IMG/VR virus record: IMGVR_UViG_3300043446_003513
Location: 32,001 to 96,000 of that record
DNA length: 64,000 nucleotides
Reading direction: 5' to 3' (one strand)
DNA from: a virus
In this document: piece by piece, positions 1,640 through 61,013 of the stretch
Layout: each line of letters starts with the position of its first letter
Position numbering within the stretch: the stretch's first letter is position 1
Notes under the pieces: generated by a model
Databases searched by the model: none
What the model saw: the letters and a program-made list of their open reading frames with translations, nothing else
Told to the model about the DNA's origin: nothing
Made by a program: the position numbers and the translations under genes

Positions 1640-1807
1640 ATGCTAACTAGAAAACACTTTCAGGCAACGGCAGAAATTCTAAATACCCACCGCAAATTTA
1701 TACACCCCGCCGCTTATCAAAGTCTAATCAAAGAATTTGCCAAAGTTTATTCGGAGGAAAATCCCTCGTTTGATCCCGTCAAATTTGCCAAGGTAGTTTA
1801 TAAATAA
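1640..1807 (+). CDS. hypothetical protein (MLTRKHF...NPSFDPVKF)
   Basis: start refined; similar to C-terminal half of 21289..21738. Confidence 0.7.
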   Translation: MLTRKHFQATAEILNTHRKFIHPAAYQSLIKEFAKVYSEENPSFDPVKFAKVVYK

Positions 1808-1855
1808 ATGTCGGTGGCTTCCGCTATAATCTAACCAGTAACGAAAGGAAACGAA

Positions 1856-2053
1856 ATGAATAAATACAAAGTGTTCTTAGAAACTTATGTTGAGGCAGAG
1901 GATTATCTCAAAGCCGCTTTCGCGGCGTTTCATAAGTTAGACCCATTGGGTGATGTTCAGTTTCAGTTTGAGATTGTAGATGTTCATCACTTTACCAGCG
2001 AAGGCTGGAAATCCCCCACGGGAATTGTTGAGATGTTAGAGAGGTATCGCTAA
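1856..2053 (+). CDS. hypothetical protein
   Basis: promoter -10 TATAAT at 1825 and RBS AACGAAAGGAA at 1840. Confidence 0.75.
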   Translation: MNKYKVFLETYVEAEDYLKAAFAAFHKLDPLGDVQFQFEIVDVHHFTSEGWKSPTGIVEMLERYR

Positions 2054-2256
2054 AATGTTTTTTGTAATCGTATTTGGTTTGGGTGTATTGACTACACTTC
2101 TCGGAACAGCTCTCGCATTATTGTTTTTTGATTTGGAGGACTAATGAAAAAATGTAGTTTGTGTCGCAAATATCGAATTCTAAAAAATGCGTATTTGTGT
2201 GCGGAGTGTAATCAGCTTATTCGCGGCGACCTCAAGTAGTAAAAAAGCCGAATATT

Positions 2257-2284
2257 TTCGTGTAACGCGTTCGGGCGTGTCGCC
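2257..2284 (+). repeat. 28-bp exact direct repeat, copy 2
   Basis: identical to 1040-1067. Confidence 0.95.
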
Positions 2285-2336
2285 CAGTATTTTGCGGCCT
2301 CTTAGATCTTGTTACGACACGAAAAAATATTTCCCC
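2283..2336 (+). repeat. representative copy of the fixed-spacing intergenic element CCCA-N9-GG-N14-TTACG-N17-CC (14 copies in 1-12.2 kb)
   Basis: TTACG core at 854, 1119 (TTATG), 2312, 2522, 2820, 3600, 4566, 5597, 6833, 9069, 10465, 11137, 11991, 12124 with conserved offsets. Confidence 0.85.
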
Positions 2337-2608
2337 AAAACTTGATTATTGTCGGTGCGTTGTGCTATTGTTTTCCTATCAACAAAAGGAGCTCATATGC
2401 GTAACTGCGTTTATTGTAAAAAAGAAACCACCCTCTTTACCACCGACGACGGTGAGTACTACTACCCCGTATGTAACGAGTGTGGATAGGAGCCCACGTT
2501 TTTGCGGCCCCCAAGATCTGCTTACGGCGCAACACGCCGATTTCCTGAAATTTGGATAATGTCGGTGCGGTGTGCTATTATCTGCTTATCAACTACGAAA
2601 GGAAAAAA

Positions 2609-2779
2609 ATGGATAATCTCTTCGATTCCTACGACGGCTCTGACGAGGCTTGGGCTGACCCAGCTGAGCAGGAGGATTGGGTCGATACCGACCTTTTCTA
2701 CGAGAGCGTTTCTGATTCGGACGCCCTCATCTCTATCGGTTGGGGCACCGATGAGGACTACGGGTACTACGGGGAGTAA
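2609..2779 (+). CDS. very acidic small protein (56 aa, ...GWGTDEDYG)
   Basis: start refined after ACGAAAGGAA; 18 D/E, no K/R. Confidence 0.75.
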   Translation: MDNLFDSYDGSDEAWADPAEQEDWVDTDLFYESVSDSDALISIGWGTDEDYGYYGE

Positions 2780-2931
2780 TCCCCGCTAGGCCCACGTTTT
2801 TGGCGGCATTTTTTCTCTGTTACGGAGATCACAAAAAAATTCCTGGATTCTGTCCAGAAACGCCCAATTTTAGATTAGGTTATGTCGGTTAGCGATGATA
2901 CAATATACGCACCAACAACGAAAGGTAAAAA

Positions 2932-3225
2932 ATGGAACAACCGCTTATCAGCAAAATGCTTGACCACGCTATTGAGGCTATTCACTCTGATGATGTTACA
3001 GAATCTGCTCGTCGTATTATCAATACAGAATACGCAAATGTTGATGATAAGATTCGTGACCTCTTTGCTTACTCGCAAGAACTCTGCTCAATGTTCATCA
3101 CCAAATATCTTTGTGCTAACTACACCGATGAGCAAATCGAGCAACTACAAAATGATGTTGAGGAATATATGGGCTATCAACTCAGCGATGAAATTGAGCA
3201 ATTCCTACTTGCTGGGGGTGAGTAA
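2932..3225 (+). CDS. hypothetical acidic protein
   Basis: RBS AACGAAAGG at 2917, promoter upstream. Confidence 0.75.
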   Translation: MEQPLISKMLDHAIEAIHSDDVTESARRIINTEYANVDDKIRDLFAYSQELCSMFITKYLCANYTDEQIEQLQNDVEEYMGYQLSDEIEQFLLAGGE

Positions 3226-3226
3226 T

Positions 3227-3439
3227 ATGGAGAATAAGTTTATTCACGAAACAACAGTTGTGTTTCAGCACGAAATCTCTCTTGATGAATTTTCAGAAAT
3301 TCTACAATATGGTGAGGAGCATATCAAATCAATGCTCGACACTATGGTGTATGAAATTTTCAAGTTGCGAGAAACTGAAGCCGAAGTAAACGAACACGGA
3401 ACCAAGGCGTTTTGTAGAATCAAGGAGGTGTCTCGATGA
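3227..3439 (+). CDS. hypothetical protein
   Basis: start refined (MENKFIHE) after GGGGGTGAG; 3' part of track ORF 2882..3439. Confidence 0.7.
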   Translation: MENKFIHETTVVFQHEISLDEFSEILQYGEEHIKSMLDTMVYEIFKLRETEAEVNEHGTKAFCRIKEVSR

Positions 3440-3665
3440 GCTTAGAAACACTACAGTATCTTTGCGAAGTTTTCGATTGGTCAACTGATGTAGATAATGA
3501 AGGTCAACTAATTATTTACACGGGAATCTATAACTCGTAATGTTGGGAAGCCGCCCTTCGGGGCGGTGATCCCACTCTTTTGCGGGGTTTTTGATCGTGT
3601 TACGTAGTTATAGAAAATGTCCCTGCCATGTGGTAGAATAATCCCACCAAGAACGAAAGGCAACA

Positions 3666-4382
3666 ATGAAACTCAAACGCTCTAACGATAGGAAGGTCGC
3701 TAATGCGGTATCGAAAAACGGAAAAACACCCGCTATTGCTAATACTTTTGGGCTACCTGCTGGGAAGAATTTCTCATGTCCTGGCGCTACTAGCGTATGC
3801 GAAAGTGTCTGCTACGCAGGAAAGCTTGAAAAACTCTACAAAGGAGTAAAAAATAATCTTCTCCATAACTGGGAATTACTAAAAGACGCTGATTTTGATA
3901 GCATGCTCTTATTGCTTGACGATATGATTGTAGATTTCATTGATGATTGCACTAAGCGTAATGCGCCTAAATTATTCCGCATTCATTGGGATGGCGATTT
4001 CTTCTCCGATACTTATGCGTACGCATGGCGTGTAATTATTACTAATCACCCAGATGTTCAATTCTGGGTATACACTCGTGTAAAGTCTGCCGCCGAGATT
4101 CTTCAAGGCATTGAAAACTTATCTCTTTATTATTCTACCGATTCAGAAAATAAAGATATCGCTCAAGAATTATCTAATAAGGGCGTAAAGCTTGCATACC
4201 TTGCTACAACTTTTGCAATGGCAAAGGAAGACATGCTAAACCTTATCGGAAAGTCTGGTGTAAAGTGTCCTGAGAATAATAAAAAGATTCCGCTAATATC
4301 AGTCAACGGGTCTGCGTGTGTTACTTGCGGGCAATGCGTATATGAGCGTAACGATATTCTATTCTCCGCAACTAAAAAATAA
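3666..4382 (+). CDS. gp88-like Fe-S/radical-SAM-like phage protein
   Basis: CPGATSVCESVCYA and RIHWDGDF motifs, C-terminal C...CxxCxxC. Confidence 0.75.
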   Translation: MKLKRSNDRKVANAVSKNGKTPAIANTFGLPAGKNFSCPGATSVCESVCYAGKLEKLYKGVKNNLLHNWELLKDADFDSMLLLLDDMIVDFIDDCTKRNAPKLFRIHWDGDFFSDTYAYAWRVIITNHPDVQFWVYTRVKSAAEILQGIENLSLYYSTDSENKDIAQELSNKGVKLAYLATTFAMAKEDMLNLIGKSGVKCPENNKKIPLISVNGSACVTCGQCVYERNDILFSATKK

Positions 4383-4671
4383 GGAAGGAAAAATAAATGG
4401 ATCAAGATGTAAAAGATTGGGAAGATCGTATAGAGCTCTCTCATATTGAACAATTAGAAAAGTTTGGCTGGTGTGTTTGCGAAGATACAAATGGAGAAGG
4501 CCAAATGGCAGAGGATTGCCCTCCTAATTAGGAGGGCCCACTATTTTGGGGGGTCTTGTCAAGTGTTACGGACATCACATTTATTTTCCTGGATTGCCTT
4601 TACAAATGTCGGTGGGGTCGAGTATAATATACCCATAACTTCATACAACTACTATCGAAAGGAAATGCCAC

Positions 4672-5091
4672 ATGGCAAGAGGTAAAGCAATAAATGTAAA
4701 GATTGCCACAGCAAAGGTAATCAAAGCACTAGAAACAAAGTTAGCACAAATCAAAAAAGACAAGGCTAACCAAAAATCTAACGAGGAAAAGTATAAGAAG
4801 GAAGTTGAGAAGTGGGGCAAAGAACTTGCCAAACTTGCGCTTACTAAAATTAGTAAGGCAGAAAATCTTTCTGCCACTACGCGATATAACAATGATGTTT
4901 ATATCAACTTTACTTTACCTGCTGGAACCATCACAGTACCTGATGAGCCCGAAAGAAATTTCGAGGTAATTTATGACCACAACTATCGTGAGATGGTAGA
5001 GGAAATTGAGAACGCAATTCGTATTCTCAAAATGACCGACGAGGAAACAGTAAGCACCTCAACTTACAACTCTATCGCTAAATATCTCTAA
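4672..5091 (+). CDS. hypothetical protein (coiled-coil N-terminus)
   Basis: TTTACA-18-TATAAT promoter, CGAAAGGAA RBS. Confidence 0.8.
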   Translation: MARGKAINVKIATAKVIKALETKLAQIKKDKANQKSNEEKYKKEVEKWGKELAKLALTKISKAENLSATTRYNNDVYINFTLPAGTITVPDEPERNFEVIYDHNYREMVEEIENAIRILKMTDEETVSTSTYNSIAKYL

Positions 5092-5097
5092 CTAGAA

Positions 5098-5126
5098 TTG
5101 GGGAGGGACACGGACACCCTCCCCAA
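5098..5126 (+). other. GC-rich hairpin after CDS (terminator-like, no U tract)
   Basis: TTGGGGAGGG...CCCTCCCCAA. Confidence 0.6.
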
Positions 5127-5179
5127 ATATCCGCTAGGCGGTTTGGTGCTGAGCAACACCTAAGGTAAAAATGGCTACC

Positions 5180-5277
5180 TCACCTGAGTATGTGAAGGCT
5201 AAACTACTCACCAAGTGTATCTCCCAGTGCCATGGCGAGGGAGGCAGTTCCTGAGCATGAACTGAAACTGCTCACCA
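5180..5277 (+). ncRNA. two tandem H-type pseudoknot motifs (5180-5210, 5245-5274), each ending in ACCA
   Basis: TCAC/GTGA plus TGAGTA/TACTCA; CAGTTC/GAACTG plus TGAGCA/TGCTCA; both stems covary. Confidence 0.65.
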
Positions 5278-5296
5278 CTACTAACAAAGGAAAGAA

Positions 5297-5557
5297 ATGG
5301 CAAACCGATATCGAGTAGAGATATTCGACGAAATGAAGTCAAACGATTTGACGATTTACTCAGATACAAATGTTGATAAGGATTTACTAACTGAAATGGT
5401 ATTTAGTAATATCAGCAAGTTTGAGGGAAATATCAGCGCATTCGTTTATGATAATGAAAAAAAGAAAAAGACAACTGTTCTAATCCTTCCTTGGGAAACT
5501 GTAAGAAACATCAACTCCAAAATTCGTTGGGGATATGAGGCGCTGGGTCTCTCCTGA
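5297..5557 (+). CDS. hypothetical protein
   Basis: RBS AAAGGAAAG, ORF track. Confidence 0.75.
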   Translation: MANRYRVEIFDEMKSNDLTIYSDTNVDKDLLTEMVFSNISKFEGNISAFVYDNEKKKKTTVLILPWETVRNINSKIRWGYEALGLS

Positions 5558-5685
5558 GATCCAGTTGCCCACGTTTTTGTGGCCACATTTTATCTGTTAC
5601 GTACGCGATCAACATTCCCCAAAATAAGCTTTACAATGTCGTACCCTGCTGATATAATTCAACTAATCTAATCGAAAGGAAACCA

Positions 5686-6693
5686 ATGGCTCATAATCTC
5701 GAAGTCGAGAATGGCGAAGTTGCTTTTGCGCTACGCGGAACCCCCGCTTGGCACAATCTCGCCAATCGTATTTTCTCACAAGATGAGGAAGTATCTACAC
5801 AAACAATGCTATCAGAAGCGAAACTATCTAATTGGGATGTTCGCCTATCTCCAGTAACCGACCACATTCCTAGCGAATGGAATGATGTTAGCGGGGCACA
5901 ATATGTTCTTCGTACTAACCCATTCAATCAAGGAACTGATGTTCTATCCGTAGTTGGTTCTCGCTATCAAGTAATTCAGAATGAAGATTTATTTTCGTTT
6001 GCTGATAATGTTCTTGACGGGGATTCCCGTTGCGCTTGGGAATCTGCTGGTTCTCTAAAGAATGGTAAAGTTGTATTCGGCTCTCTTACTGTTCCCCGCG
6101 AAATGGTGTTAGACCCACAAGGTGCTAACGATACAACTAAACTGTATCTTATCGTTTGGACTTCACACGATGGTTCTGTTGCGGTTCAGGCAGCAATTAC
6201 TCCTGTTCGTGTTGTATGCCAAAATACTCTCAATCTTGCTATGCGTAACGCTAAACAATCATTCAAGATTCGCCACACGCAGACCGCTGACGGCAAGATT
6301 CAAGTTGCCCGCGAAACCCTCGGACTTACATTCGGATATTTTGATGAGTTTGAGAAACAAGCGCAGGAACTATTCAAGCAAGAGATTTCCGACAAGGATT
6401 TTTCTAAACTGCTAACCACTATCTATCCTAAGCCAGAGGCTGACGCTAAAAATGCTCTCAAGCGTTGGGAAAATAAAGTCGTATTGCTTGATGACCTTTA
6501 TTTCAATTCACCTACCAATGCTAACATCAAGGGCACAAAGTGGGGAGCGTTCAATGCGCTAACTGAACGCCTTGATTATTTCCGTTCAACTCGTAAGAGC
6601 AATACGGAATCTAAATGGGCTTCCGCTTCAGGGTTTGACCCAATCATTACTGCCGAAAAGAATAAGATTCTTCAGGTTGTAAAAGCGTTCTAG
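5686..6693 (+). CDS. DUF932 / phage-plasmid-like protein (TIGR03299-type)
   Basis: MAHNLE...PAWH, ESAGSLKNG, TSHDGS, TPVRVVCQNTL, IRHT, GTKWGAFNALTE motifs. Confidence 0.85.
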   Translation: MAHNLEVENGEVAFALRGTPAWHNLANRIFSQDEEVSTQTMLSEAKLSNWDVRLSPVTDHIPSEWNDVSGAQYVLRTNPFNQGTDVLSVVGSRYQVIQNEDLFSFADNVLDGDSRCAWESAGSLKNGKVVFGSLTVPREMVLDPQGANDTTKLYLIVWTSHDGSVAVQAAITPVRVVCQNTLNLAMRNAKQSFKIRHTQTADGKIQVARETLGLTFGYFDEFEKQAQELFKQEISDKDFSKLLTTIYPKPEADAKNALKRWENKVVLLDDLYFNSPTNANIKGTKWGAFNALTERLDYFRSTRKSNTESKWASASGFDPIITAEKNKILQVVKAF

Positions 6694-6699
6694 TACGCA

Positions 6700-6726
6700 A
6701 CTCCTGGGTATGAGTATAAACTGCCT
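6700..6726 (+). ncRNA. third pseudoknot motif copy, 4 nt upstream of tRNA-Asp
   Basis: ACTC-CTGGGTA-T-GAGT-ATAAAC-TGCCT. Confidence 0.6.
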
Positions 6727-6730
6727 TCCT

Positions 6731-6803
6731 GGCCCATTAGCTTAGCGGTTAAAGCGCTACCCTGTCACGGTAGAGATCGTCGGTTCAAATCCGATATGGG
6801 TCG
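6731..6803 (+). tRNA. tRNA-Asp (GTC)
   Basis: cloverleaf GGCCCAT/ATGGGTC, anticodon arm CTACC-CTGTCAC-GGTAG, T-loop TTCAAAT; no encoded CCA. Confidence 0.92.
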
Positions 6804-6920
6804 CCCCCAAAATCATGGGTGCAAAAATGCTTTTACGCAACCCAAAAATATTTTCCCGAAATGCTTGATATTGTCAGTGGCCTCGTGTATACTTCTGCCA
6901 ACAGAACGAAAGGAATAAAT

Positions 6921-7382
6921 ATGGACGAGTTTGTAGAGTTATCATATGATGAGTGGGTAGATACTTATAGGCCTATCAAAAATCATATTGACCCAAATGC
7001 TTCTATGGACGGCTATATGTTTGAGACGTATGATTCAGAGAAAGACTTTGTAAAGCAATCTTTCCCCGAATATATTTGGACTTATGGCGATGGTGATGAC
7101 GGCGGTATGTATATTTGGAATGGTTATGGAATTGTAAATCGCATTGGTTATTTTGTAACTGAGATTCCTTGCCCGCCAAAAACTACTATTCAGGTATTGG
7201 TATCTCATAACTGGTATTACTGCGAGAGCTGCGGTTCAGAAACAGAAGACCCAGATAATCTAATTAGAGATTCATTTCAGGATATTGACTTAGATAAGTG
7301 TCCTAACTGTGCTACCGCTGAGGAGCTAACAACCGCTGGCTTTACTCAAATAAGAGAAGGGCTCTGGAGCGTGGGTCAGTAA
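6921..7382 (+). CDS. hypothetical protein with C-terminal zinc ribbon
   Basis: start refined after AACGAAAGGAA; CESC...CPNC. Confidence 0.75.
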   Translation: MDEFVELSYDEWVDTYRPIKNHIDPNASMDGYMFETYDSEKDFVKQSFPEYIWTYGDGDDGGMYIWNGYGIVNRIGYFVTEIPCPPKTTIQVLVSHNWYYCESCGSETEDPDNLIRDSFQDIDLDKCPNCATAEELTTAGFTQIREGLWSVGQ

Positions 7383-7460
7383 TGACCCACAGGATCGTGG
7401 CGAGACTTGTGCTTGTCAGTGGCAACTGCTATACTACACCCAATCAACGAAAGGAAGGCA

Positions 7461-7883
7461 ATGTACCAAGACAATAACCCAATTGTCGATAAACCGATAC
7501 CGACATTGGAAGAGCAATACAAGCAAGAAATGGAATTAAGATATGGTAGCGAAATTACTATATTAAACAATAAGTTACACGACCGTAATCAACGCATATC
7601 TGATTTCAACACTAACATCAACGCTGTTCGTGATTATCTAGTTGAGAATTATGATGAACTAGAAGGTCACGCTGATTCTATCGCCGACCTTCTTGGCGTA
7701 GATTTAACTAAAACAACTACTTTCACAGTTGTCGCAACTTACACAGTTGAAATTACTCACGACATTAATCATTTGCCAACTGACTTTGATTTCGCAATTG
7801 GTTGGTCTAATGGACTTGAATACAATGGTGAAGGCGACATTGAAATTATTGATTCAGACATAACTGAGATTCACGAGGTATAA
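7461..7883 (+). CDS. hypothetical protein
   Basis: start refined after AACGAAAGGAAG. Confidence 0.75.
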   Translation: MYQDNNPIVDKPIPTLEEQYKQEMELRYGSEITILNNKLHDRNQRISDFNTNINAVRDYLVENYDELEGHADSIADLLGVDLTKTTTFTVVATYTVEITHDINHLPTDFDFAIGWSNGLEYNGEGDIEIIDSDITEIHEV

Positions 7884-8113
7884 TGTTCTATCGACTTAAG
7901 GCAAAGAATAAGGTCTCATTTAATGGGGCCTTATTCACCGCAGACATAAATGGACTTGACCCTGATAACTTTAACCCAAAAGAATATATATTTGAAATTG
8001 GAACGGGAAAGGTGGAAAAAGTTTCACGCTTGATTTCTCAATACAATTTAGATATACTTGTCGAATCGGACTACGCACCAAATCAATATGCGTATCTAGT
8101 GGAAGGGGTATAA
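7883..8113 (+). CDS. hypothetical protein
   Basis: TAATG coupling, GAGGT RBS. Confidence 0.7.
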   Translation: MFYRLKAKNKVSFNGALFTADINGLDPDNFNPKEYIFEIGTGKVEKVSRLISQYNLDILVESDYAPNQYAYLVEGV

Positions 8114-8262
8114 TGTCTGACAGTTATCAAGAAGGATACGCAGACGGCTATAAGTTTGCTCGTGATGAAATCATTGAGAAACTAAGAGAAATAGATATTG
8201 ACGATATCGATGGCTGGCTATTAGATAAGTTATCTGACATGATTGAGAGAAACGACATATGA
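8113..8262 (+). CDS. small hypothetical protein (49 aa, not in track)
   Basis: TAATG coupling; MSDSYQEGYADG... Confidence 0.65.
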   Translation: MSDSYQEGYADGYKFARDEIIEKLREIDIDDIDGWLLDKLSDMIERNDI

Positions 8263-8453
8263 CAGAAGAATGGATCGGCTGCGATAAATGTTCAGTAGCA
8301 CAGGCTAGGTATTTATTGAGAGGTGTTGAAGGGGATTTATATTTCTGCCACCACCACTATAACAGTTTCAAGGGTGGCCTAGACAAATGGTCCTTTGAAA
8401 TGATAGAATTGAACAAGAAGGAAGAAACACCACAACTAGAAAAGGCGGAATAA
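8259..8453 (+). CDS. small Cys/His zinc-binding protein
   Basis: CDKC...FCHHH. Confidence 0.7.
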   Translation: MTEEWIGCDKCSVAQARYLLRGVEGDLYFCHHHYNSFKGGLDKWSFEMIELNKKEETPQLEKAE

Positions 8454-8454
8454 T

Positions 8455-8859
8455 ATGGGAGACAGAGCAAACTTTGGATTTGTGCAGCCTAACGGTCACA
8501 CAATTGTATTGTATGGGCACTGGGCTGGTGAGAATATGCTAGCTAATTTAGCAGATGCAGTTAATGCAGCTCGTCCTCGTTGGGGCGATTCATCATATGC
8601 GACACGTATTGCAATTAGTCAATTAATTGGCAATGAATGGAACGGTGAGCTTGGCTGGGGTTTGGCCGTAGATGAGATTCTAGACAATGAGCACCACATT
8701 GCAATTGTTGATTTTGAACAGCAAATATTTTCTCTTCATCCTGAGGATGAGCACGTCAACAAGGATAACAAGGTTAGGGGAATGCGTAATGAACCTAAAT
8801 TCACCATGGACCTAGATTCATTTGTGAATAAATATGGAGACGTTGTAGTTGGCGTTTGA
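8455..8859 (+). CDS. hypothetical protein (MGDRAN...LYGHWAG)
   Basis: ORF track, AAGGCGGA RBS. Confidence 0.75.
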   Translation: MGDRANFGFVQPNGHTIVLYGHWAGENMLANLADAVNAARPRWGDSSYATRIAISQLIGNEWNGELGWGLAVDEILDNEHHIAIVDFEQQIFSLHPEDEHVNKDNKVRGMRNEPKFTMDLDSFVNKYGDVVVGV

Positions 8860-8885
8860 CATATTAGCCGAAGTTATTCTATAAT
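8856..8885 (+). promoter_or_regulatory. consensus sigma-A promoter driving a non-coding unit
   Basis: TTGACA (8856)-18-TATAAT (8880). Confidence 0.75.
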
Positions 8886-8890
8886 ATGAA

Positions 8891-9038
8891 TAGGTCTTCC
8901 AGGGCCTATTCATTATAGGTAAGGTGCCGCTACTAGGTCTATCACCGAGTGGCTAAGTAAGGCAAGCGTTCTTCCTTTCGTTTCGCTAGCAGCCTACCAC
9001 ATTAATCCCCGCAGCTTATGTTGCGGGGATCTTATTTT
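8891..9038 (+). ncRNA. candidate ~150-nt structured sRNA with anti-RBS loop UUCUUCCUUUCGUUU
   Basis: own promoter, several hairpins, intrinsic terminator, no ORF in track; loop 8969-8983 is the reverse complement of the early RBS. Confidence 0.6.
9005..9038 (+). terminator. intrinsic terminator
   Basis: ATCCCCGCAGC-TTAT-GTTGCGGGGAT then CTTATTTT. Confidence 0.75.
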
Positions 9039-9178
9039 GCCCATAAAAAATAGGGTAACAACTTTGTCTTACGGAGTCAAGTTCAATTTTCCCGAAATTT
9101 GTGATAACGATCACACGAAATTGGGTGGACAATTGTCAGTGTCTTGATATATAATTATGCCATAACGAAAGGAAAATT

Positions 9179-9427
9179 ATGGAAGAAGTATATGTTGAAA
9201 GAGTAGAATCTTTAGTTAACTATATAGAGATACACTTAACTAGTTTACAGCAAGACCTAGATAAACTATCTGAGCAAATGGAAAAGTATGATGAGGATTC
9301 TAAGGCTCACCGCTCTATGGATGAAGAGTATCTTTATTTAAGTGGACAGATTACTGCCGCCAGCCATTTATTGTCGGTGGTCAATGATACAATGGTCACC
9401 TGGAAAAGGGAGAAAAATAATGGCTGA
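9179..9427 (+). CDS. hypothetical coiled-coil protein
   Basis: promoter plus AACGAAAGGAA RBS; YLSGQITA motif. Confidence 0.75.
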   Translation: MEEVYVERVESLVNYIEIHLTSLQQDLDKLSEQMEKYDEDSKAHRSMDEEYLYLSGQITAASHLLSVVNDTMVTWKREKNNG

Positions 9428-9659
9428 TGTTTCATTCTTAGAAAATGAAAACCAAATGGTAATTGACGCAGAATTACAAACAATTGCCGAACAACTACTA
9501 GAGGACTGGCTCTATGAAAATTTGAATGAGGGTCAATTTTATGCTGATTGGCGTATTGCTTCTATGTCTGATAGTAATTACTTAAAAGGTAGATTTAATC
9601 AATTCTATAACTTACAGCCTGATAGCGATTATTATATTGAGTGGGATGAGGAGAAGTAA
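9420..9659 (+). CDS. hypothetical acidic protein
   Basis: start refined (MADVSF); own promoter at 9372-9393. Confidence 0.7.
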   Translation: MADVSFLENENQMVIDAELQTIAEQLLEDWLYENLNEGQFYADWRIASMSDSNYLKGRFNQFYNLQPDSDYYIEWDEEK

Positions 9660-9808
9660 TGTTAGGTTATAACTATCAAGATATACAAGATATGGGTGTT
9701 GGATTATCATGGGCTATTGATAATGCCCCCGCTGATATGAAAACTAGTTTATTAGAAATATGGAATTTCTTTGAAGGACTACTAGCAGAAGGGTATGTTG
9801 CAGAATAA
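9659..9808 (+). CDS. small hypothetical protein (49 aa, not in track)
   Basis: TAATG coupling, GAGGAG RBS; MLGYNYQDI... Confidence 0.65.
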   Translation: MLGYNYQDIQDMGVGLSWAIDNAPADMKTSLLEIWNFFEGLLAEGYVAE

Positions 9809-9999
9809 TGGAAGATGAAGAATTATTTACTTTCTTTGCTACTATGTATGATAAGTTTGGTCAATTTGCTGTAATTGACTTTGTTAGGTCCCGCCAAGAA
9901 AATATGCAGTTACAACATATTCATTGGCAAGACTGTAATGGTTGTGACTGGCACACCCCTTATTTAAATACTAATTGTTTGGTTTGTGGAGGATACTAA
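9808..9999 (+). CDS. small zinc-binding hypothetical protein
   Basis: CNGC...CLVC. Confidence 0.65.
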   Translation: MEDEELFTFFATMYDKFGQFAVIDFVRSRQENMQLQHIHWQDCNGCDWHTPYLNTNCLVCGGY

Positions 10000-10277
10000 T
10001 GGGAAGCAATATGGCATATGAGTTAGCAAATTCTGATCTAAGTATGGAAAGGGCTATTGGATATCACTTACAGGGTAATCATTATCCACCCGTCCCGCTC
10101 ACCATGGTCCAACCTTGCCTTGATGCAATTCAAGCATATTGGGAAGATGAAATAGATAGGGAGATTGCAATGCCAGAGGGTGTCTCATATAAAGGTAGAG
10201 ATACCGCACCTGCCTGGGCAATAATCGAACAGCACCACCTTGACGCTTGGATATCTCATGAGGAGGAATATGACTGA
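9999..10277 (+). CDS. hypothetical protein (HLQGNHYPPVP)
   Basis: start refined, GGAGG RBS. Confidence 0.75.
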   Translation: MGSNMAYELANSDLSMERAIGYHLQGNHYPPVPLTMVQPCLDAIQAYWEDEIDREIAMPEGVSYKGRDTAPAWAIIEQHHLDAWISHEEEYD

Positions 10278-10440
10278 GACATTAATAGATCTAGTTGAAC
10301 ACATAGAAGAACAAATTAAGTTATACGAGGATGACCTTGATATGACCACAGAGGAAGATATGGCCTCATTCTACCAGGGCCAACTGGAAGCATATGAGGA
10401 TTGTTTAATTAAATTAAAGTATATCTTGGATATGGACTAA
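10270..10440 (+). CDS. hypothetical acidic protein
   Basis: start refined after GAGGAGG; FYQGQLEA motif. Confidence 0.7.
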   Translation: MTETLIDLVEHIEEQIKLYEDDLDMTTEEDMASFYQGQLEAYEDCLIKLKYILDMD

Positions 10441-10540
10441 GATCTTAAGGGCAAGAAAAATTGCTTACGTATTTATGTCAAAATGCCCTTGACGGGTTTG
10501 CAAATTCAATATATAATATTAATATAGCGAAAGGATAACA

Positions 10541-10813
10541 ATGGAAACTTTAACACTGGACCCCCGTCTTCAACGACAGGTTGAACTTGGGAGCTCTGGC
10601 CTAGATATCATTCATGGCGAGCTGAAGAATCTCATGTTACAAGCAGAAGTACATTTAGAAGCTGCCAGGGAGGTTGAGGAGGAATCTGGCTCTGCAATTG
10701 ATTCCATGGAGCGGACGTACTGGGAGGGACACCTAGACGCCTTGTCAGATATCTACAGTCTCACATATGCATTGGCATTCGAAATTCAAGAAAGGGATTC
10801 TCGTGAAGTATAA
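10541..10813 (+). CDS. hypothetical protein
   Basis: CGAAAGGA RBS; YWEGHLDAL motif. Confidence 0.75.
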   Translation: METLTLDPRLQRQVELGSSGLDIIHGELKNLMLQAEVHLEAAREVEEESGSAIDSMERTYWEGHLDALSDIYSLTYALAFEIQERDSREV

Positions 10814-11223: not shown

Positions 11224-11367
11224 ATGACAACAAAGCGAGAATATCTAAAGTCCAAGGGAATCACAGTTGGAGCCCGTGGCCGTTTTTCAGGTGCAGCTAA
11301 GCAAGCCATTCAAGAGGCTTTGCAAAAGGGTGTAACCTTCACAGATGAGAAGGCCCCACGCAAGTAA
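11224..11367 (+). CDS. Lsr2-like DNA-binding mini-protein (47 aa, not in track)
   Basis: MTTKREYLKSKGITVGARGRFSGAAKQAI resembles the Lsr2 C-terminal RGR AT-hook domain; GAAAGGA RBS and TATAAT upstream. Confidence 0.7.
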   Translation: MTTKREYLKSKGITVGARGRFSGAAKQAIQEALQKGVTFTDEKAPRK

Positions 11368-11449
11368 CCTGAACTAATACGGAGGGATGGTTGAGGAGAC
11401 TTGCCATCCCTCCTTTCATTTGGTAGAATTGAACATTTGAGAGGCGGAC

Positions 11450-14136: not shown

Positions 14137-14646
14137 TTAAGCCGATAAGATTTTTGAAATTGCATTTATTGTTGATGCAATTCTTCCAATATCTCTAAGT
14201 TGTTCCGTAGAGTATCCTTCTTGCTTTAAAGTGTCATAATGAGCTTTCACACAAAAATGGCACTTTCCAATTATTGATGCTACTAATGAGTAGGCTTCAA
14301 ACTTGCCCTTGGTAGTTCCGCCATGACTTGAAATAGCATTCATTCTTAATTGAGCTGGAAGACCTTTTAAGTCTTTATCTCCCGCCATCTCAATATACGG
14401 GTACCAAATATTATTTTGAGCCATTAATGATGCAGCAGTAAGAGCGGCATCTCTTTCAGTAACATTATCAGCGCTTGCTAAAATAAAAGTTAAAAGCTTA
14501 CTGTTTCCTGTAGCAAATGCAGCAGAAATAGATAAATACTTTGCTTCTTCTGGATCAATAGAAGATCTATTAATAACTGCATCTAGATTTAACTTAATAT
14601 CTTTAGCGTAATCAGGAATAGACTCTTTTAGTTGATCAACCCACAT
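14137..14646 (-). CDS. ahpD: alkyl hydroperoxidase AhpD
   Basis: PDYAKDIKLNL, LMAQNNIWY, CHFCVKAH; downstream of ahpC. Confidence 0.9.
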   Translation of the reverse strand: MWVDQLKESIPDYAKDIKLNLDAVINRSSIDPEEAKYLSISAAFATGNSKLLTFILASADNVTERDAALTAASLMAQNNIWYPYIEMAGDKDLKGLPAQLRMNAISSHGGTTKGKFEAYSLVASIIGKCHFCVKAHYDTLKQEGYSTEQLRDIGRIASTINAISKILSA

Positions 14647-15181
14647 TTAATGTGTCTCCACCCAAAGGTCTGTTGCATGCACAAAGTTCTCCAGTTTGCA
14701 AGGCGTCCAAAACTCTCAAAGCTTCGTCTGCATTGCGACCAACGTCTAGATTATTGCAAGTAACATGTTGAATAATATTATCTGGATCTACAATAAATGT
14801 TGCACGATATGTAACTCCAGATGAATGGTGAACGCCTAAATCATTTGCTAATTGGTGCGCCGTATCTGCAAATGACCAAGAATTTGTTTTTCTTAGATCT
14901 TCATGAGCATTTCTCCAGGCCACCTTACAAAATTCATTATCGACAGAACCAGTCATTAATACTGCATCACGGTCGTTAAAATCATTGACTAACTTATCAT
15001 ATGCAACAATTTCTGTTGGACATACAAAAGTAAAGTCTTTTGGATAAAAAACAATTATTTTCCATTTTCCAGGAAATGAATCTTGTGTAATAGTTTCGAA
15101 AGTTGAATCGTCATAAGTTAAAGCTCCTGGCTTAACACCAGTAACAGCAAAATCTCCTAATTTGCTTCCAACAGTTTTCAT
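14636..15181 (-). CDS. ahpC: peroxiredoxin AhpC (actinobacterial three-Cys type)
   Basis: FYPKDFTFVCPTEI and GELCACN. Confidence 0.93.
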   Translation of the reverse strand: MKTVGSKLGDFAVTGVKPGALTYDDSTFETITQDSFPGKWKIIVFYPKDFTFVCPTEIVAYDKLVNDFNDRDAVLMTGSVDNEFCKVAWRNAHEDLRKTNSWSFADTAHQLANDLGVHHSSGVTYRATFIVDPDNIIQHVTCNNLDVGRNADEALRVLDALQTGELCACNRPLGGDTLNVG

Positions 15182-21938: not shown

Positions 21939-22222
21939 TTTGCACCTTCCAGTTCACATCTTACGCCGTAAGACTCTATAGTATTTTTTATCATCTCAAT
22001 ATATTCAATTACTTTTACTCTATGTGATCCATCATATTTTGCAAAATTGCTTTCGTATAATCTTATAGCTAAAAATTCTGGATATTTAACTATATCCATT
22101 TTTAAATCTGGCACAGGACACCTTAATTCTCTTACTCTTTTAGCCATTTCTTTTGTATAAAAAACTGGCTTGTTTGGCTCACCAGTCCATTGGTTTATGC
22201 CATATTTAAAATGATTATCCAT
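21935..22222 (-). CDS. hypothetical protein
   Basis: operon packing. Confidence 0.7.
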   Translation of the reverse strand: MDNHFKYGINQWTGEPNKPVFYTKEMAKRVRELRCPVPDLKMDIVKYPEFLAIRLYESNFAKYDGSHRVKVIEYIEMIKNTIESYGVRCELEGAK

Positions 22223-22523
22223 TTTTCTTTCTTATTCTTTTCCATATATCTGGTGTTTTGTGAAGATTCTTAGTTTTATCTACAGATCCAGAGTTTAAAT
22301 AAACTCCACCCCACACCCCATATTCATTATTTTCTATACCAGACTGATAGCAAAGTTTAGAAACTGGGCATCCTAAGCATGCCTCATCTACATTTCTAGC
22401 TATATTTTGATCAATTTCATATTTATCAAAAAATAGATTTGTATCCATTCCCTTACATACTGCTATGTCATACCAATTAAAATCTTCTTTATCTATACCT
22501 AAACTATCTAAAATGTTTGACAT
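22215..22523 (-). CDS. whiB: WhiB-family Fe-S transcription regulator
   Basis: W...AVC...FF...CLGCPV...C...YGVWGG. Confidence 0.9.
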   Translation of the reverse strand: MSNILDSLGIDKEDFNWYDIAVCKGMDTNLFFDKYEIDQNIARNVDEACLGCPVSKLCYQSGIENNEYGVWGGVYLNSGSVDKTKNLHKTPDIWKRIRKKNG

Positions 22524-36436: not shown

Positions 36437-36701
36437 TTATCATGTCCAAAAGTTTATTTTTTTGTTTAATATTAGTTTTTTTATTACATGTAGAACATAT
36501 ATTAGATTGGTTATATCTGCTTAATTTAGTCTTACATTTTTTACACTGTCTAATTGCGCCATTTCTAATAGCTTTTTTCTCATAATATTTTTCCATTATT
36601 CTTTTGTTAGTAGCAACTCTGCAGCATTCGTCAGAACAATACTTTTGATTATGAGTCTTTGGCTCAAATTCTGTAGCACACTCCTTGTTATAACAAATCA
36701 A
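36423..36701 (-). CDS. zinc-finger protein
   Basis: multiple CxxC motifs. Confidence 0.7.
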   Translation of the reverse strand: MICYNKECATEFEPKTHNQKYCSDECCRVATNKRIMEKYYEKKAIRNGAIRQCKKCKTKLSRYNQSNICSTCNKKTNIKQKNKLLDMINEIS

Positions 36702-37474
36702 TTTTTAAATACCTCTAGTGGCTCTATTTGTACTGTTCCAGTCTCCATAGACCAACAAGCTTTTTTGGCTGGACAATACTTGCAAACCGAACTTGATTTT
36801 GTATACGGCCTCATTGGGAGGTCGCCTTCTTTAAAGTTGTCCCAGACCTCGCACATCCAAATAAATGTATCCTCAATAATCTTTTTATTTCTTGCATTCA
36901 TTTGAATTGGAATAATTAATACTTCTTGAGTATTTTTATTTTCATACAAAAAGAAACCTTCTTTTACATTCATTAATTTCATATAAATTAAAAGTTGTAT
37001 CAAATGGTTTGGCGATGGATCCATGGTGGCCTGTCTGGTGTCCCAAACCTCCTGCTTTGCAGTTTTGATTTCTCCGAGAACTTCGGTTCCATCCCAGTCT
37101 AAAACTAGATCTATAAATCCTCTTATTGGTGGGTATTCATTTTTAATTTCTTTTTCTTCTTCTTTTAAAATTCCAATACTACTAATTAATTTTTGTAATC
37201 TTTCATGAGCCTGTGTTCCCTGCATCATATTAGCCAAGGCTATTGAGTCTTGATCTTCTATAAACATAACCCCAGTAAATGCTAGATACCAATATCTTGG
37301 ACAATTTCCTTTTCCATATCCGATAGTACTAGGGCTAAAGGAATGCTTTGTTGTTACCTGATCTTCTCTTTTTGTTGCTAGGTAAGCTTCATCTAGCATA
37401 GAGGCAAACTTTTGTGGATCAAAATCACCTGTAGATTTTTTAAATTTTAAATTACTTACAATTTCTCTTCCCAT
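36698..37474 (-). CDS. Cas4/PD-(D/E)xK-family exonuclease
   Basis: CPR, GT..H, RGFID, EIKT, Q..IY, CKYCP...C. Confidence 0.85.
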   Translation of the reverse strand: MGREIVSNLKFKKSTGDFDPQKFASMLDEAYLATKREDQVTTKHSFSPSTIGYGKGNCPRYWYLAFTGVMFIEDQDSIALANMMQGTQAHERLQKLISSIGILKEEEKEIKNEYPPIRGFIDLVLDWDGTEVLGEIKTAKQEVWDTRQATMDPSPNHLIQLLIYMKLMNVKEGFFLYENKNTQEVLIIPIQMNARNKKIIEDTFIWMCEVWDNFKEGDLPMRPYTKSSSVCKYCPAKKACWSMETGTVQIEPLEVFKN

Positions 37475-58422: not shown

Positions 58423-61013
58423 TTCCAGGTCACCCCAACAATATTCCAAGAATTTAATATAGCAGACACATCAATCAAATGGTCTTGTGGCGTTGTTCCA
58501 AAGGAACCTCGCTCTTTAATTCTATATCTACCGTTAGGCTGAATATTATTCTTGCCAACTTCAGGTTTTGCTATAGAAATAATTTGTTCTAAATCGCTCT
58601 TGCTTTGTATTAGTACTGTTTCTTTATTTCCAGTATCGGCAGAATAATACTCATACTCTACCCCGTCAAATTCTATAATTTCTGAATTCAAGGTTAGATA
58701 TCCATTATAACTCATTACTGCTTCTGGAATTAATGAAGAATCTTTTACTGGATCTAACTCTACAAAAAATCCTGCGCTTTGACTAGAAAGAAGGTTTGTT
58801 CTTAATACACCAGCTCCAATATTTTTAGCTCCTTGACTATCCCATAAATTTTGTTTGCTTTGTTCTAAATCCATTTCAGAGCCATAGGTTGAATAGTAAA
58901 CAACTTTAACCTTATTTGTTGCCCTCTGTTCTGTTTTTTCTAAAGATATAATATTTGCCAAGTCTGGAGTCTTAACTACAGTTCCTCCGCCACCCCATAG
59001 TAAATTTGGAAATGGACTTGAAATTTTACTGTTAGTTCCAGTCGAAGCACCATTACTATAAAGAGTAAATGTTGTAGAATTTGCAGATATAACAACACCA
59101 GAAATATTATATATATTATTTACAACTCCAGTGACAGTAACTATATCTCCTTGTTTAAAATTATTATTTGCAGTATATATATACTTAAAGTCATTTACTG
59201 TAGCTGGATGATTTGGAGGAGGGTCTGGCATATTTGTTGTTGCGCCTGTAATTTGAATTGGAGTATTTGATTCAGTGGTGTTCCTAAACTCCCACATAAC
59301 CGAAGAAGAATCTTGCGGATAAGCTTTTCTATTTGGATCAAATAGTGCATCCTTTGTATAGAACTGAAGAACATTTTCTTCATCAAAGAAGGCGGTTAGC
59401 TGAGAGTCTCTACACAATTCACCTAATGCATTCCAAACAGTTTTATTTGAGTCTGTCCACCAATAATATGGTGTTATTGTAGAGCTTTCAGAAATTGTTC
59501 CATAGTCAGTTGTAACTGAACCATATGTTGGATCTACCCTTCTAAAATTAAATTTATAATTTGTAAACCCAATTGAATCTAGTAAATACCTTATGATGCC
59601 TGGAACTGTATAGTTTTTGCATAATACTGGAGCTGCAGAAATTTCTTGTAAATACTTTGCCCCATCTCTTGCCGAAATTGCTATTTCTCCATATTCATTT
59701 ATTGTCCAACTATCTAAATAAAAAGTACCTTGTTTTGCAATTAATAATTCACTTCCAGTAATTTCGCTTAAAGTAATAAAGGGTTTAATAACCATATTTT
59801 TGGAAAAATATAATGTTGATTGGTTTAAAGTTTGGCTTTTATCAAATGCTTTTACATATTCCGAAGCAAGGGCGGCTGGACTGAATAAATTTAACTGTAA
59901 TGAGTTTGCACTGATTCTTCCAACTGGAAGATAATCTTCACTACCAGACGACGAATCTTTTGTTATAGAACAACTGACAATTTCATCTAAAATTTGTTTT
60001 CTCCATACAGGGGAAACTTCTATAACTCCAATAAATTTATCAGTGCTTCCAGTTTCTTTTGTAGCCGTCACCCTTATATCCGTAGTAGATACTGGTGCAG
60101 CAGCACTCCAAACATAATCTTTGGTCCATGTGGATCCGTTATAGTATAGCTCAAATACTCCCTTATTAACGCCTTCGTTTGCCGTAGTATATGGAATATC
60201 TGTATTTACTCCAGAAAAAATTGGGGTAGTTGAATTAGACAAATAAATATTAAAGGTTGCTGGAGTTGAGTGAGATAGTTCAAACTTAACTACAATCTTA
60301 TTTGTTAATATAGTTTTTGGATACTTTAATCTAAGATCAATTCCTTTTCCTCTTCCACCCACCCAGTATTTATAATATGTATCTTCACCTGGATAATAAA
60401 CCCTGTGTTTAGATGTCATTTGATATCCATACTCTAATGCTTTAGGGTCTGAATAGTTTGGCGCTGTTCCTTCTTTTTTTAAGTCTCCAAGAATTGCATA
60501 TTTAATACCAGAACTATTTGGCCTAAATGGTTCTTTAATTGTATCTATTGGAAATAACTTTTTAAATGGAAGTCCTACTACATTTTCAACTGGATAGTAA
60601 TCAGATTTCTTGCTTGCTTTTCCACCACTAGAATATGTTCCAGTTATTAAGCTGCTTACAGTAAAATAAGAAGAAGTGGCGCTAGCTACCACCACATCTT
60701 TTAAATTAAATTGTGATGGGTTAACCCCAATAATACTTACGGTATCTCCAGCCGAAAAAGTATTGTTTGCAGTATATGTTATTACTGCACCAGTAGCTGC
60801 AACGGAAGTTATTGTTGCTTCTGTTTCTAAATCGTAATTAGATACAGAAACTGTTTGAGTTGGTGTCTCACCATACTCATTCATGTTATATTCTATAAAT
60901 GTTTCACACATTGCTTTAATAGAATAGTCTTGATTCATTCTATTAAAAACAAGGTTGGTAGATGTTGTATCTGTGGTTAAATTTCCATTAGATACTGTTG
61001 TTGGTTGGATCAT
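58419..61013 (-). CDS. large minor tail protein
   Basis: two internal YTANN.F..GD.V...GV repeats; follows distal tail gene; start refined. Confidence 0.72.
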   Translation of the reverse strand: MIQPTTVSNGNLTTDTTSTNLVFNRMNQDYSIKAMCETFIEYNMNEYGETPTQTVSVSNYDLETEATITSVAATGAVITYTANNTFSAGDTVSIIGVNPSQFNLKDVVVASATSSYFTVSSLITGTYSSGGKASKKSDYYPVENVVGLPFKKLFPIDTIKEPFRPNSSGIKYAILGDLKKEGTAPNYSDPKALEYGYQMTSKHRVYYPGEDTYYKYWVGGRGKGIDLRLKYPKTILTNKIVVKFELSHSTPATFNIYLSNSTTPIFSGVNTDIPYTTANEGVNKGVFELYYNGSTWTKDYVWSAAAPVSTTDIRVTATKETGSTDKFIGVIEVSPVWRKQILDEIVSCSITKDSSSGSEDYLPVGRISANSLQLNLFSPAALASEYVKAFDKSQTLNQSTLYFSKNMVIKPFITLSEITGSELLIAKQGTFYLDSWTINEYGEIAISARDGAKYLQEISAAPVLCKNYTVPGIIRYLLDSIGFTNYKFNFRRVDPTYGSVTTDYGTISESSTITPYYWWTDSNKTVWNALGELCRDSQLTAFFDEENVLQFYTKDALFDPNRKAYPQDSSSVMWEFRNTTESNTPIQITGATTNMPDPPPNHPATVNDFKYIYTANNNFKQGDIVTVTGVVNNIYNISGVVISANSTTFTLYSNGASTGTNSKISSPFPNLLWGGGGTVVKTPDLANIISLEKTEQRATNKVKVVYYSTYGSEMDLEQSKQNLWDSQGAKNIGAGVLRTNLLSSQSAGFFVELDPVKDSSLIPEAVMSYNGYLTLNSEIIEFDGVEYEYYSADTGNKETVLIQSKSDLEQIISIAKPEVGKNNIQPNGRYRIKERGSFGTTPQDHLIDVSAILNSWNIVGVTWK

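Follow-up and report, generated by a model that had tools for sequence, protein, structure and literature searches.

What is the function of a stretch without open reading frames that lies between two operons of an uncultured freshwater phage of actinobacteria, and why does it contain a sequence that is the exact complement of the unusual ribosome-binding site (RBS) shared by about ten of the putative early operons of the same phage? To address this question, we analyzed a 64-kb stretch (hereafter the window), comprising bases 32001-96000 of a 106,679-bp IMG/VR virus record that has 127-bp direct terminal repeats and is rated complete by CheckV. GC content is 28-42% along the window and 38-42% in its + strand arm. 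The DnaE of this phage is 57% identical to those of Streptomyces phages BillNye and Samisti12, and a WhiB-like protein of 102 aa, with four Cys and a GVWGG motif, is encoded at 22215-22523 on the - strand, which supports an actinobacterial host. No integrase or resolvase was found in the complete genome, and near-identical DNA occurs in freshwater, river and estuary metagenomes. The phage is therefore most likely a virulent phage of an uncultured, low-GC actinobacterium. When the locus was compared by blastn with 50,697 phage records, no match was found.

We first examined whether the sequence features reported in the initial annotation were correct. It had described an ORF-free unit with a consensus promoter, an intrinsic terminator and a stem whose 15-nt loop is complementary to ten RBSs, and this observation was confirmed in every detail. 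The promoter (TTGACA at 8856-8861, an 18-nt spacer and TATAAT at 8880-8885) is a 12/12 match and the best in 14 kb. The terminator stem lies at 9005-9030 (11 pairs, 7 of them G-C, with a 4-nt loop) and is followed by the U tract CTTATTTTG, so that the element spans 9005-9039. No + strand ORF of 30 aa or more lies between 8860 and 9036. The stem GCAAGCG (8962-8968) / CGCTAGC (8984-8990) has one A-A mismatch and encloses the 15-nt loop TTCTTCCTTTCGTTT at 8969-8983. The fold of the unit is more stable than those of shuffled sequences (z = -3.9). The possibility that the loop region instead belongs to a small ORF or a - strand gene was rejected, because there is no ATG at RBS distance on the - strand and the indels among relatives are not in threes.

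The ten predicted target sites, all on the + strand, were then inspected individually, and the contiguous Watson-Crick matches to the loop were exactly of the lengths claimed. The sites are AACGAAAGGAA at 1840-1850 (11 nt; ATG at 1856), ACGAAAGGAA at 2595-2604 (10 nt; ATG at 2609), AACGAAAGG at 2917-2925 (9 nt; ATG at 2932), AACGAAAGG at 3652-3660 (9 nt; ATG at 3666, encoding a GP88-family protein), CGAAAGGAA at 4656-4664 (9 nt; gene start ATG at 4672), CGAAAGGAA at 5673-5681 (9 nt; ATG at 5686, encoding a DUF932 protein), AACGAAAGGAA at 6905-6915 (11 nt; ATG at 6921), AACGAAAGGAAG at 7446-7457 (12 nt; ATG at 7461), AACGAAAGGAA at 9164-9174 (11 nt; ATG at 9179), and CGAAAGGA at 10528-10535 (8 nt; ATG at 10541). 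The site at 7446 heads a five-gene operon with abutting or overlapping stops and starts that ends at 8859, just before the RNA, whereas the site at 9164 precedes the first gene after the RNA, which has its own promoter at 9126-9155. The window holds 13 copies of CGAAAGG against 4.1 expected; ten of these are on the + strand at 1842-10528, and each of the ten lies 10-27 nt after a -10 box and 5-9 nt before the ATG of an ORF. A standard actinobacterial 16S tail (..CCUCCUUUCU) pairs with only 6-7 nt of these sites. As the initial annotation had also stated, no - strand gene uses CGAAAGG as its RBS; in a crude scan, these genes used AGGAG, GGAGG or GAGG, or had no recognizable Shine-Dalgarno (SD) sequence.

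Next, to determine whether the unit is conserved, we collected relatives through the upstream gene (8455-8856, 134 aa), which has 52 relatives at 66-77% identity in IMG/VR contigs. The non-coding stretch following this gene is conserved at 71-79% identity. RNAalifold and a covariance model (R1) gave a fold in which a helix P1 (8918-8925 / 8992-8998) encloses a P2 hairpin (8926-8931 / 8948-8953, with an inner hairpin), the junction UAAGUAAG at 8954-8961 (UAA(G/A)UAA in relatives), and P3 (8962-8968 / 8984-8990) with its large loop. R1 found exactly one copy in the window, at 8916-9002 (68.7 bits), and a signature search revealed no second copy in the genome. R1 also found one copy in each of 42 non-redundant loci anchored on the upstream gene, 61 copies in contigs found by pattern, and 66 copies in 79 loci anchored on the DUF932 gene, the last always on the same strand and 1.6-2.6 kb downstream; together these sets, which overlap, hold about 170 loci from related IMG/VR phage contigs. 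When a related group lacking the RNA was sought through the DUF932 gene, the 80 loci returned were all close relatives. On the 42 homologues, 96.6% of cells were paired, ten of 19 pairs showed changes on both sides, and the covariation score was 0.418, compared with 0.117 in shuffles (0 of 500 reached it) and at most 0.082 when partners were slid. A second, independent set (alignment A4) gave the same picture, with 93.8% of cells paired and a score of 0.473. Against Rfam 15, only tRNAs passed the gathering threshold; the best local hits scored 11-19 bits against cut-offs of 37-45, and no match to any family, including 6C, was obtained. These combined data indicate that the unit is a real RNA gene belonging to a new, well-supported family, with its transcription inferred from sequence alone.

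The flanking elements were less uniform. Relatives retain an extended -10 (TGnTATAAT) instead of a good -35, and they keep a terminator of different sequence. A 5' hairpin, H1 (TGAATAGG / CCTATTCA, 8887-8912), keeps its pairing with different sequences in relatives, but is absent, together with the promoter, in three relatives (loci L047, L049 and L050), and is thus not part of the core; in these three, the RNA would come from the 3' end of the upstream operon. Because H1 starts only 2 nt after the -10 box, a normal start site would cut into its 5' arm, and H1 may form only in read-through transcripts from the upstream operon and could be a processing site. Directly after the terminator, at 9040-9075 and at the same place in relatives, lies a conserved element GCCC(G/T)CA..N..(T)GAGGGTA followed by TTACG, which seems to belong to the repeated element upstream of the next early promoter rather than to the RNA. 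The gene after the RNA in the window has no homologue after the RNA in relatives and, as noted above, has its own promoter; thus, the RNA is not a leader or riboswitch of one particular gene. Among the RNA sequencing data searched, no run was found to contain window 7400-10600, and two wastewater runs that were possibly derived from RNA contained only scattered short contigs of relatives and none over the RNA, which gives no evidence either way.

We then turned to the loop itself. The P3 loop UUCUUCCUUUCGUUU carries the core CUUUCGUU at 8975-8982 and is complementary to (A)AACGAAAGGAAG. In sets chosen by protein homology rather than by the motif, CUUUCGUU was present in 42 of 42 RNAs anchored on the upstream gene and in 65 of 66 anchored on the DUF932 gene, while the stems varied. 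The base before the core defines four loop types, with C in types A and B, A in type C, and U in type D. Moreover, seven relatives that gave no R1 hit carry CCUUUCGUU in the loop of a plain 9-14-bp hairpin (for example, in loci L333 at 14445-14485, L337 at 14685-14730 and L358 at 11350-11395), in one case in the same slot and followed by a terminator. The same loop on two scaffolds argues that display of this sequence is the function, and the displayed loop therefore appears to be the selected feature, rather than the scaffold. The one relative with ample sequence but no AACGAAAG complement (locus L306) has, at 8868-8895 just upstream of the DUF932 gene, a small hairpin GCAGCUCC / GGAGCUGC with loop GUACCCCUUUC, which may or may not be an analogue. 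These findings also bear on an alternative in which the conserved 8-11 bp is a DNA site, that is, an inverted eleventh copy of a box bound by a DNA-binding regulator of the early units, with the RNA fold being incidental. Although there are ten direct copies and one inverted copy in a single 10-kb arm, the direct copies lie downstream of the -10 box in the transcribed leader, at RBS distance from the ATG, and the inverted copy always sits in the loop of a covarying helix, on two different scaffolds. We consider this alternative very unlikely.

The target motif was also examined across relatives. In every related locus, CGAAAGG followed by ATG recurred on the strand of the RNA, 3-10 times per 8-19 kb, and the only reversed copy was the RNA loop. 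Of 245 NGAAAGG sites followed by ATG, 193 have C, 22 A, 22 T and 8 G, whereas pairing with a 16S tail ending in UCU would favor A. Thus, the non-SD bases, AAC on the mRNA and GUU on the RNA, are the best conserved part of both partners. Contiguous Watson-Crick pairing averaged 9.8 nt over 204 sites in relatives. Predicted duplex energies were -14.3 to -18.4 kcal/mol with the loop and -7.4 to -12.0 kcal/mol with the tail, a difference of 4-8 kcal/mol. The initial annotation had named a host 16S tail matching the motif as a condition that would refute its reading. Tails of the form ..CCTCCTTTCG were found mostly in Dependentiae and Xanthomonadales, plus one Acidimicrobiales MAG. In 401 Actinomycetota genomes, 29 tails were read, and only with the added restriction of A or T at one downstream pattern position; of these, 25 were TTTCT, 2 TTTCG (one of them from an unpublished genome, G227), 1 TTTCC and 1 TTTCA. 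Given that these tails are not from an identified host, they are indicative only.

Because the loop contains UCCUUUC, which is identical to the end of the actinobacterial 16S rRNA, and sits in a large open loop, it could also be considered a mimic of the 16S tail that acts as a decoy for a host or phage factor recognizing or cleaving the anti-SD region, such as a MazF-type nuclease; such nucleases can cut UCCUU-type sites. However, loop types C and D replace UCC by UAC or UUC, yet keep CUUUCGUU, which is not rRNA sequence, and this reading does not explain why the RBSs carry AAC. It is therefore unlikely. A related idea, mimicry of h45/16S by GGUGCGGCU, was rejected because the G/C in it covaries with its P2 partner.

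The slot occupied by the RNA is filled differently in BE-cluster Streptomyces phages, which carry a true tmRNA there and lack the motif. In Streptomyces phage Yaboi, of the BE cluster, the position directly after the homologue of the 134-aa gene (locus L174 at 6416-6694) holds a true tmRNA with a tRNA-like domain and the tag ANSNVASAYALAA*, and this phage lacks the RNA and uses GGAGG/AAGGA sites with no CGAAAGG. This raised the possibility that the RNA has another main job that depends on its conserved scaffold, such as binding or titrating a protein or a role inherited from the tmRNA, and that the pyrimidine-rich loop is complementary to the SD sites for unrelated reasons. In favor of this view, GGUGC, UAAGUAA and CUAGCAGCC are invariant and are not needed for antisense action, the P1/P2/junction scaffold is not explained by simple antisense action, and no compensatory covariation with the targets was found (see below). 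On the other hand, ARAGORN found no tmRNA in the window or anywhere in the genome, Rfam found none at E values up to 10, the ..LAA frame runs on without a stop, no tRNA-like domain is present, and R1 does not match the Yaboi tmRNA; the idea of a tmRNA remnant was therefore rejected. The upstream 134-aa protein was also considered as an SmpB-like or RNA-binding partner, but it had no Pfam hit, belonged to phrog_31860 of unknown function, and gave an AF2 model (pLDDT 69) with no PDB fold match at E of 0.001 or below. Given also that relatives that dropped the scaffold kept the loop motif in a plain hairpin, and that the match extends 3-4 nt beyond the SD on the non-rRNA side in both partners, a scaffold-based function appears doubtful, although it is the least improbable of the alternatives considered here.

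We next asked whether loop and RBS sequences covary. No clean compensatory covariation was seen. The core never varies, and the RBS -3 position (the position before AA) does not track the loop +3 position. At the one variable position (C to A or U before CUUUCG), loops with A lose a pair with the SD GG, and the RBS does not change to compensate; the G after CGAAAG is merely less fixed, at 70-72% where the loop has A or U compared with 94% where it has C. RBS sets paired about 1.2-1.5 kcal/mol better with loops of their own superclade, but this weak effect is a single evolutionary contrast. Seven of the eleven loop bases equal the 16S tail (UCCUUUC), and thus part of the complementarity to any GAAAGGA-type SD is automatic. 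A genome-wide duplex-energy scan ranked the early RBSs near the top, at places 3, 8, 16, 23, 25 and 40, but not exclusively; the ranking was noisy because of G-U pairs, and many purine-rich coding sites scored about as well.

Taken together, these data are best explained, in our view, by a trans-acting antisense RNA that masks a regulon-wide RBS, a reading to which we assign a probability of about 0.55. In this model, a stand-alone RNA of about 147 nt (about 8892-9039) is made from its own sigma-A-type promoter and ends at the intrinsic terminator. Its P3 loop, carrying the seed CUUUCGUU (usually as UUCCUUUCGUU), would pair with the very short (20-30-nt) leaders of about ten + strand operons, all of which use the extended RBS (A)ACGAAAGG(AA) 5-9 nt before the ATG. 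Pairing would cover the SD inside the 30S footprint and block initiation on the first cistron, and, where stops and starts abut or overlap as in 7461-8859, would also lower translation of the cistrons behind it. Because the RNA sits at the end of one such operon and some relatives lack its own promoter, it would build up as early transcription proceeds and give a delayed, regulon-wide shut-off of early protein synthesis. The analysis itself establishes the RNA family, its structure, the invariant loop, the shared RBS and the complementarity between them, whereas transcription, pairing in vivo, repression and timing are inferred. That the + strand arm is early is likewise inferred from host-type promoters and small genes of unknown function, and, given that the RNA is encoded among its proposed targets, the timing logic is conjecture. 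The interpretation in the initial annotation was thus partly supported: a structured actinophage RNA whose loop fits the special RBS better than the rRNA does was borne out, but its early-to-late switch and its suggested targeting of host mRNAs remain inference.

The same pairing mechanism could serve a different role, in which the RNA is an exclusion or immunity factor like P1 c4 or P4 CI, made steadily from a host-type promoter and blocking early-gene translation of superinfecting relatives that share the RBS code. Consistent with this, the RBS motif and the loop core are shared across the whole phage group, so that the RNA of one phage would act on its relatives. Moreover, nine of the ten early-type promoters (window 1800-9160) share TGTC(G/A/C)nnn about 8 nt before the -10 box, most often as TGTCGGTG or TGTCAGTG, a motif resembling the mycobacterial RecA-NDp/PafBC motif; the promoter of the RNA, like the one at 10489, lacks this TGTC(G/A)GTG-type spacer motif and so is regulated differently. 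However, the absence of an integrase or resolvase makes a prophage state unlikely, and the RNA would hit the phage's own early mRNAs just as hard. We regard an exclusion role as improbable.

The proposed mechanism is that of the c4 antisense RNA of phages P1/P7 (and of P4 CI RNA and P22 sar), a small, structured phage RNA whose loop sequences pair in trans with complementary sites around an RBS and block translation (PMC12197685). In contrast, c4 controls one operon (icd-ant) of a temperate phage and is cut out of that same transcript, whereas here one loop matches a shared RBS of about ten separate operons in a phage without an integrase, with no sequence or structural similarity to c4. The host of the present phage is an actinobacterium, a group in which Hfq is not known. 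The actinobacterial 6C/B11 sRNA and firmicute C-rich-loop sRNAs such as RsaE/RoxS are chaperone-independent sRNAs that also present pyrimidine-rich hairpin loops to purine-rich SD regions, but those loops are C-runs that hit many unrelated host mRNAs, whereas the loop described here is UUCCUUUCGUU, with a specific non-SD extension, and matches a dedicated phage RBS.

On the RBS side, the closest parallel is with the start-associated sequences (SAS) of cluster K mycobacteriophages, an asymmetric conserved motif that contains the SD but extends beyond what 16S can pair with, lies 3-9 nt before the ATG of 11-19 non-structural genes, all in one orientation, and has a single reversed copy; its role is still called unknown (PMC3203893; PMC11373665). 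The motif studied here likewise goes beyond 16S pairing, lies a few nucleotides before the ATG, keeps one orientation and is confined to the non-structural arm. Its sequence, (A)ACGAAAGG(AA), differs from the 13-bp SAS motif GGGATAGGAGCCC, as do the phage group and the host, and it is thus an analogue and not a member. We examined the reversed SAS copy in Mycobacterium phage Adephagia (locus L295 at 36655-36725; record 58654-58724) and found that it lies in the non-coding gene 92-93 gap, in the 11-nt loop CCUCCUAUCCC (the CCUCCUAUCC loop) of a 19-bp hairpin that is conserved in K1-like phages with two compensatory pairs. Late transcription is reported, from a published RNA-seq study, to start in that gap. 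The parallel is incomplete, however: the anti-SAS loop is limited to K1-like phages, Keshu, Pharb and SirPhilip have different loops, and the loop of Ekdilam does not match its own SAS. That an RNA acts in cluster K is our inference and is not published. A broader reading, which we offer only tentatively, is that actinophages repeatedly evolve a private translational code, in which a set of early or non-structural operons shares an extended RBS and the phage displays a single antisense copy of it in an RNA hairpin loop, which in cluster K would lie in the leader of the late transcript. One RNA could then switch off the whole set, and this would explain the 15-year-old puzzle of the SAS and their lone reversed copy.

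Post-transcriptional control by phage RNAs is known mainly from single-target cases in temperate coliphages, whereas here a whole set of operons appears wired to one RNA through a shared, non-canonical RBS. The finding yields a concrete, testable hypothesis for the unexplained SAS of cluster K mycobacteriophages, which can be grown and engineered, and the RBS and loop could serve as an orthogonal translational off-switch. The group of uncultured freshwater actinophages that carries the RNA is large, comprising more than 150 contigs, and, if the proposed reading is true, the RNA would be a compact RNA-based way to end early protein synthesis in Actinobacteria.
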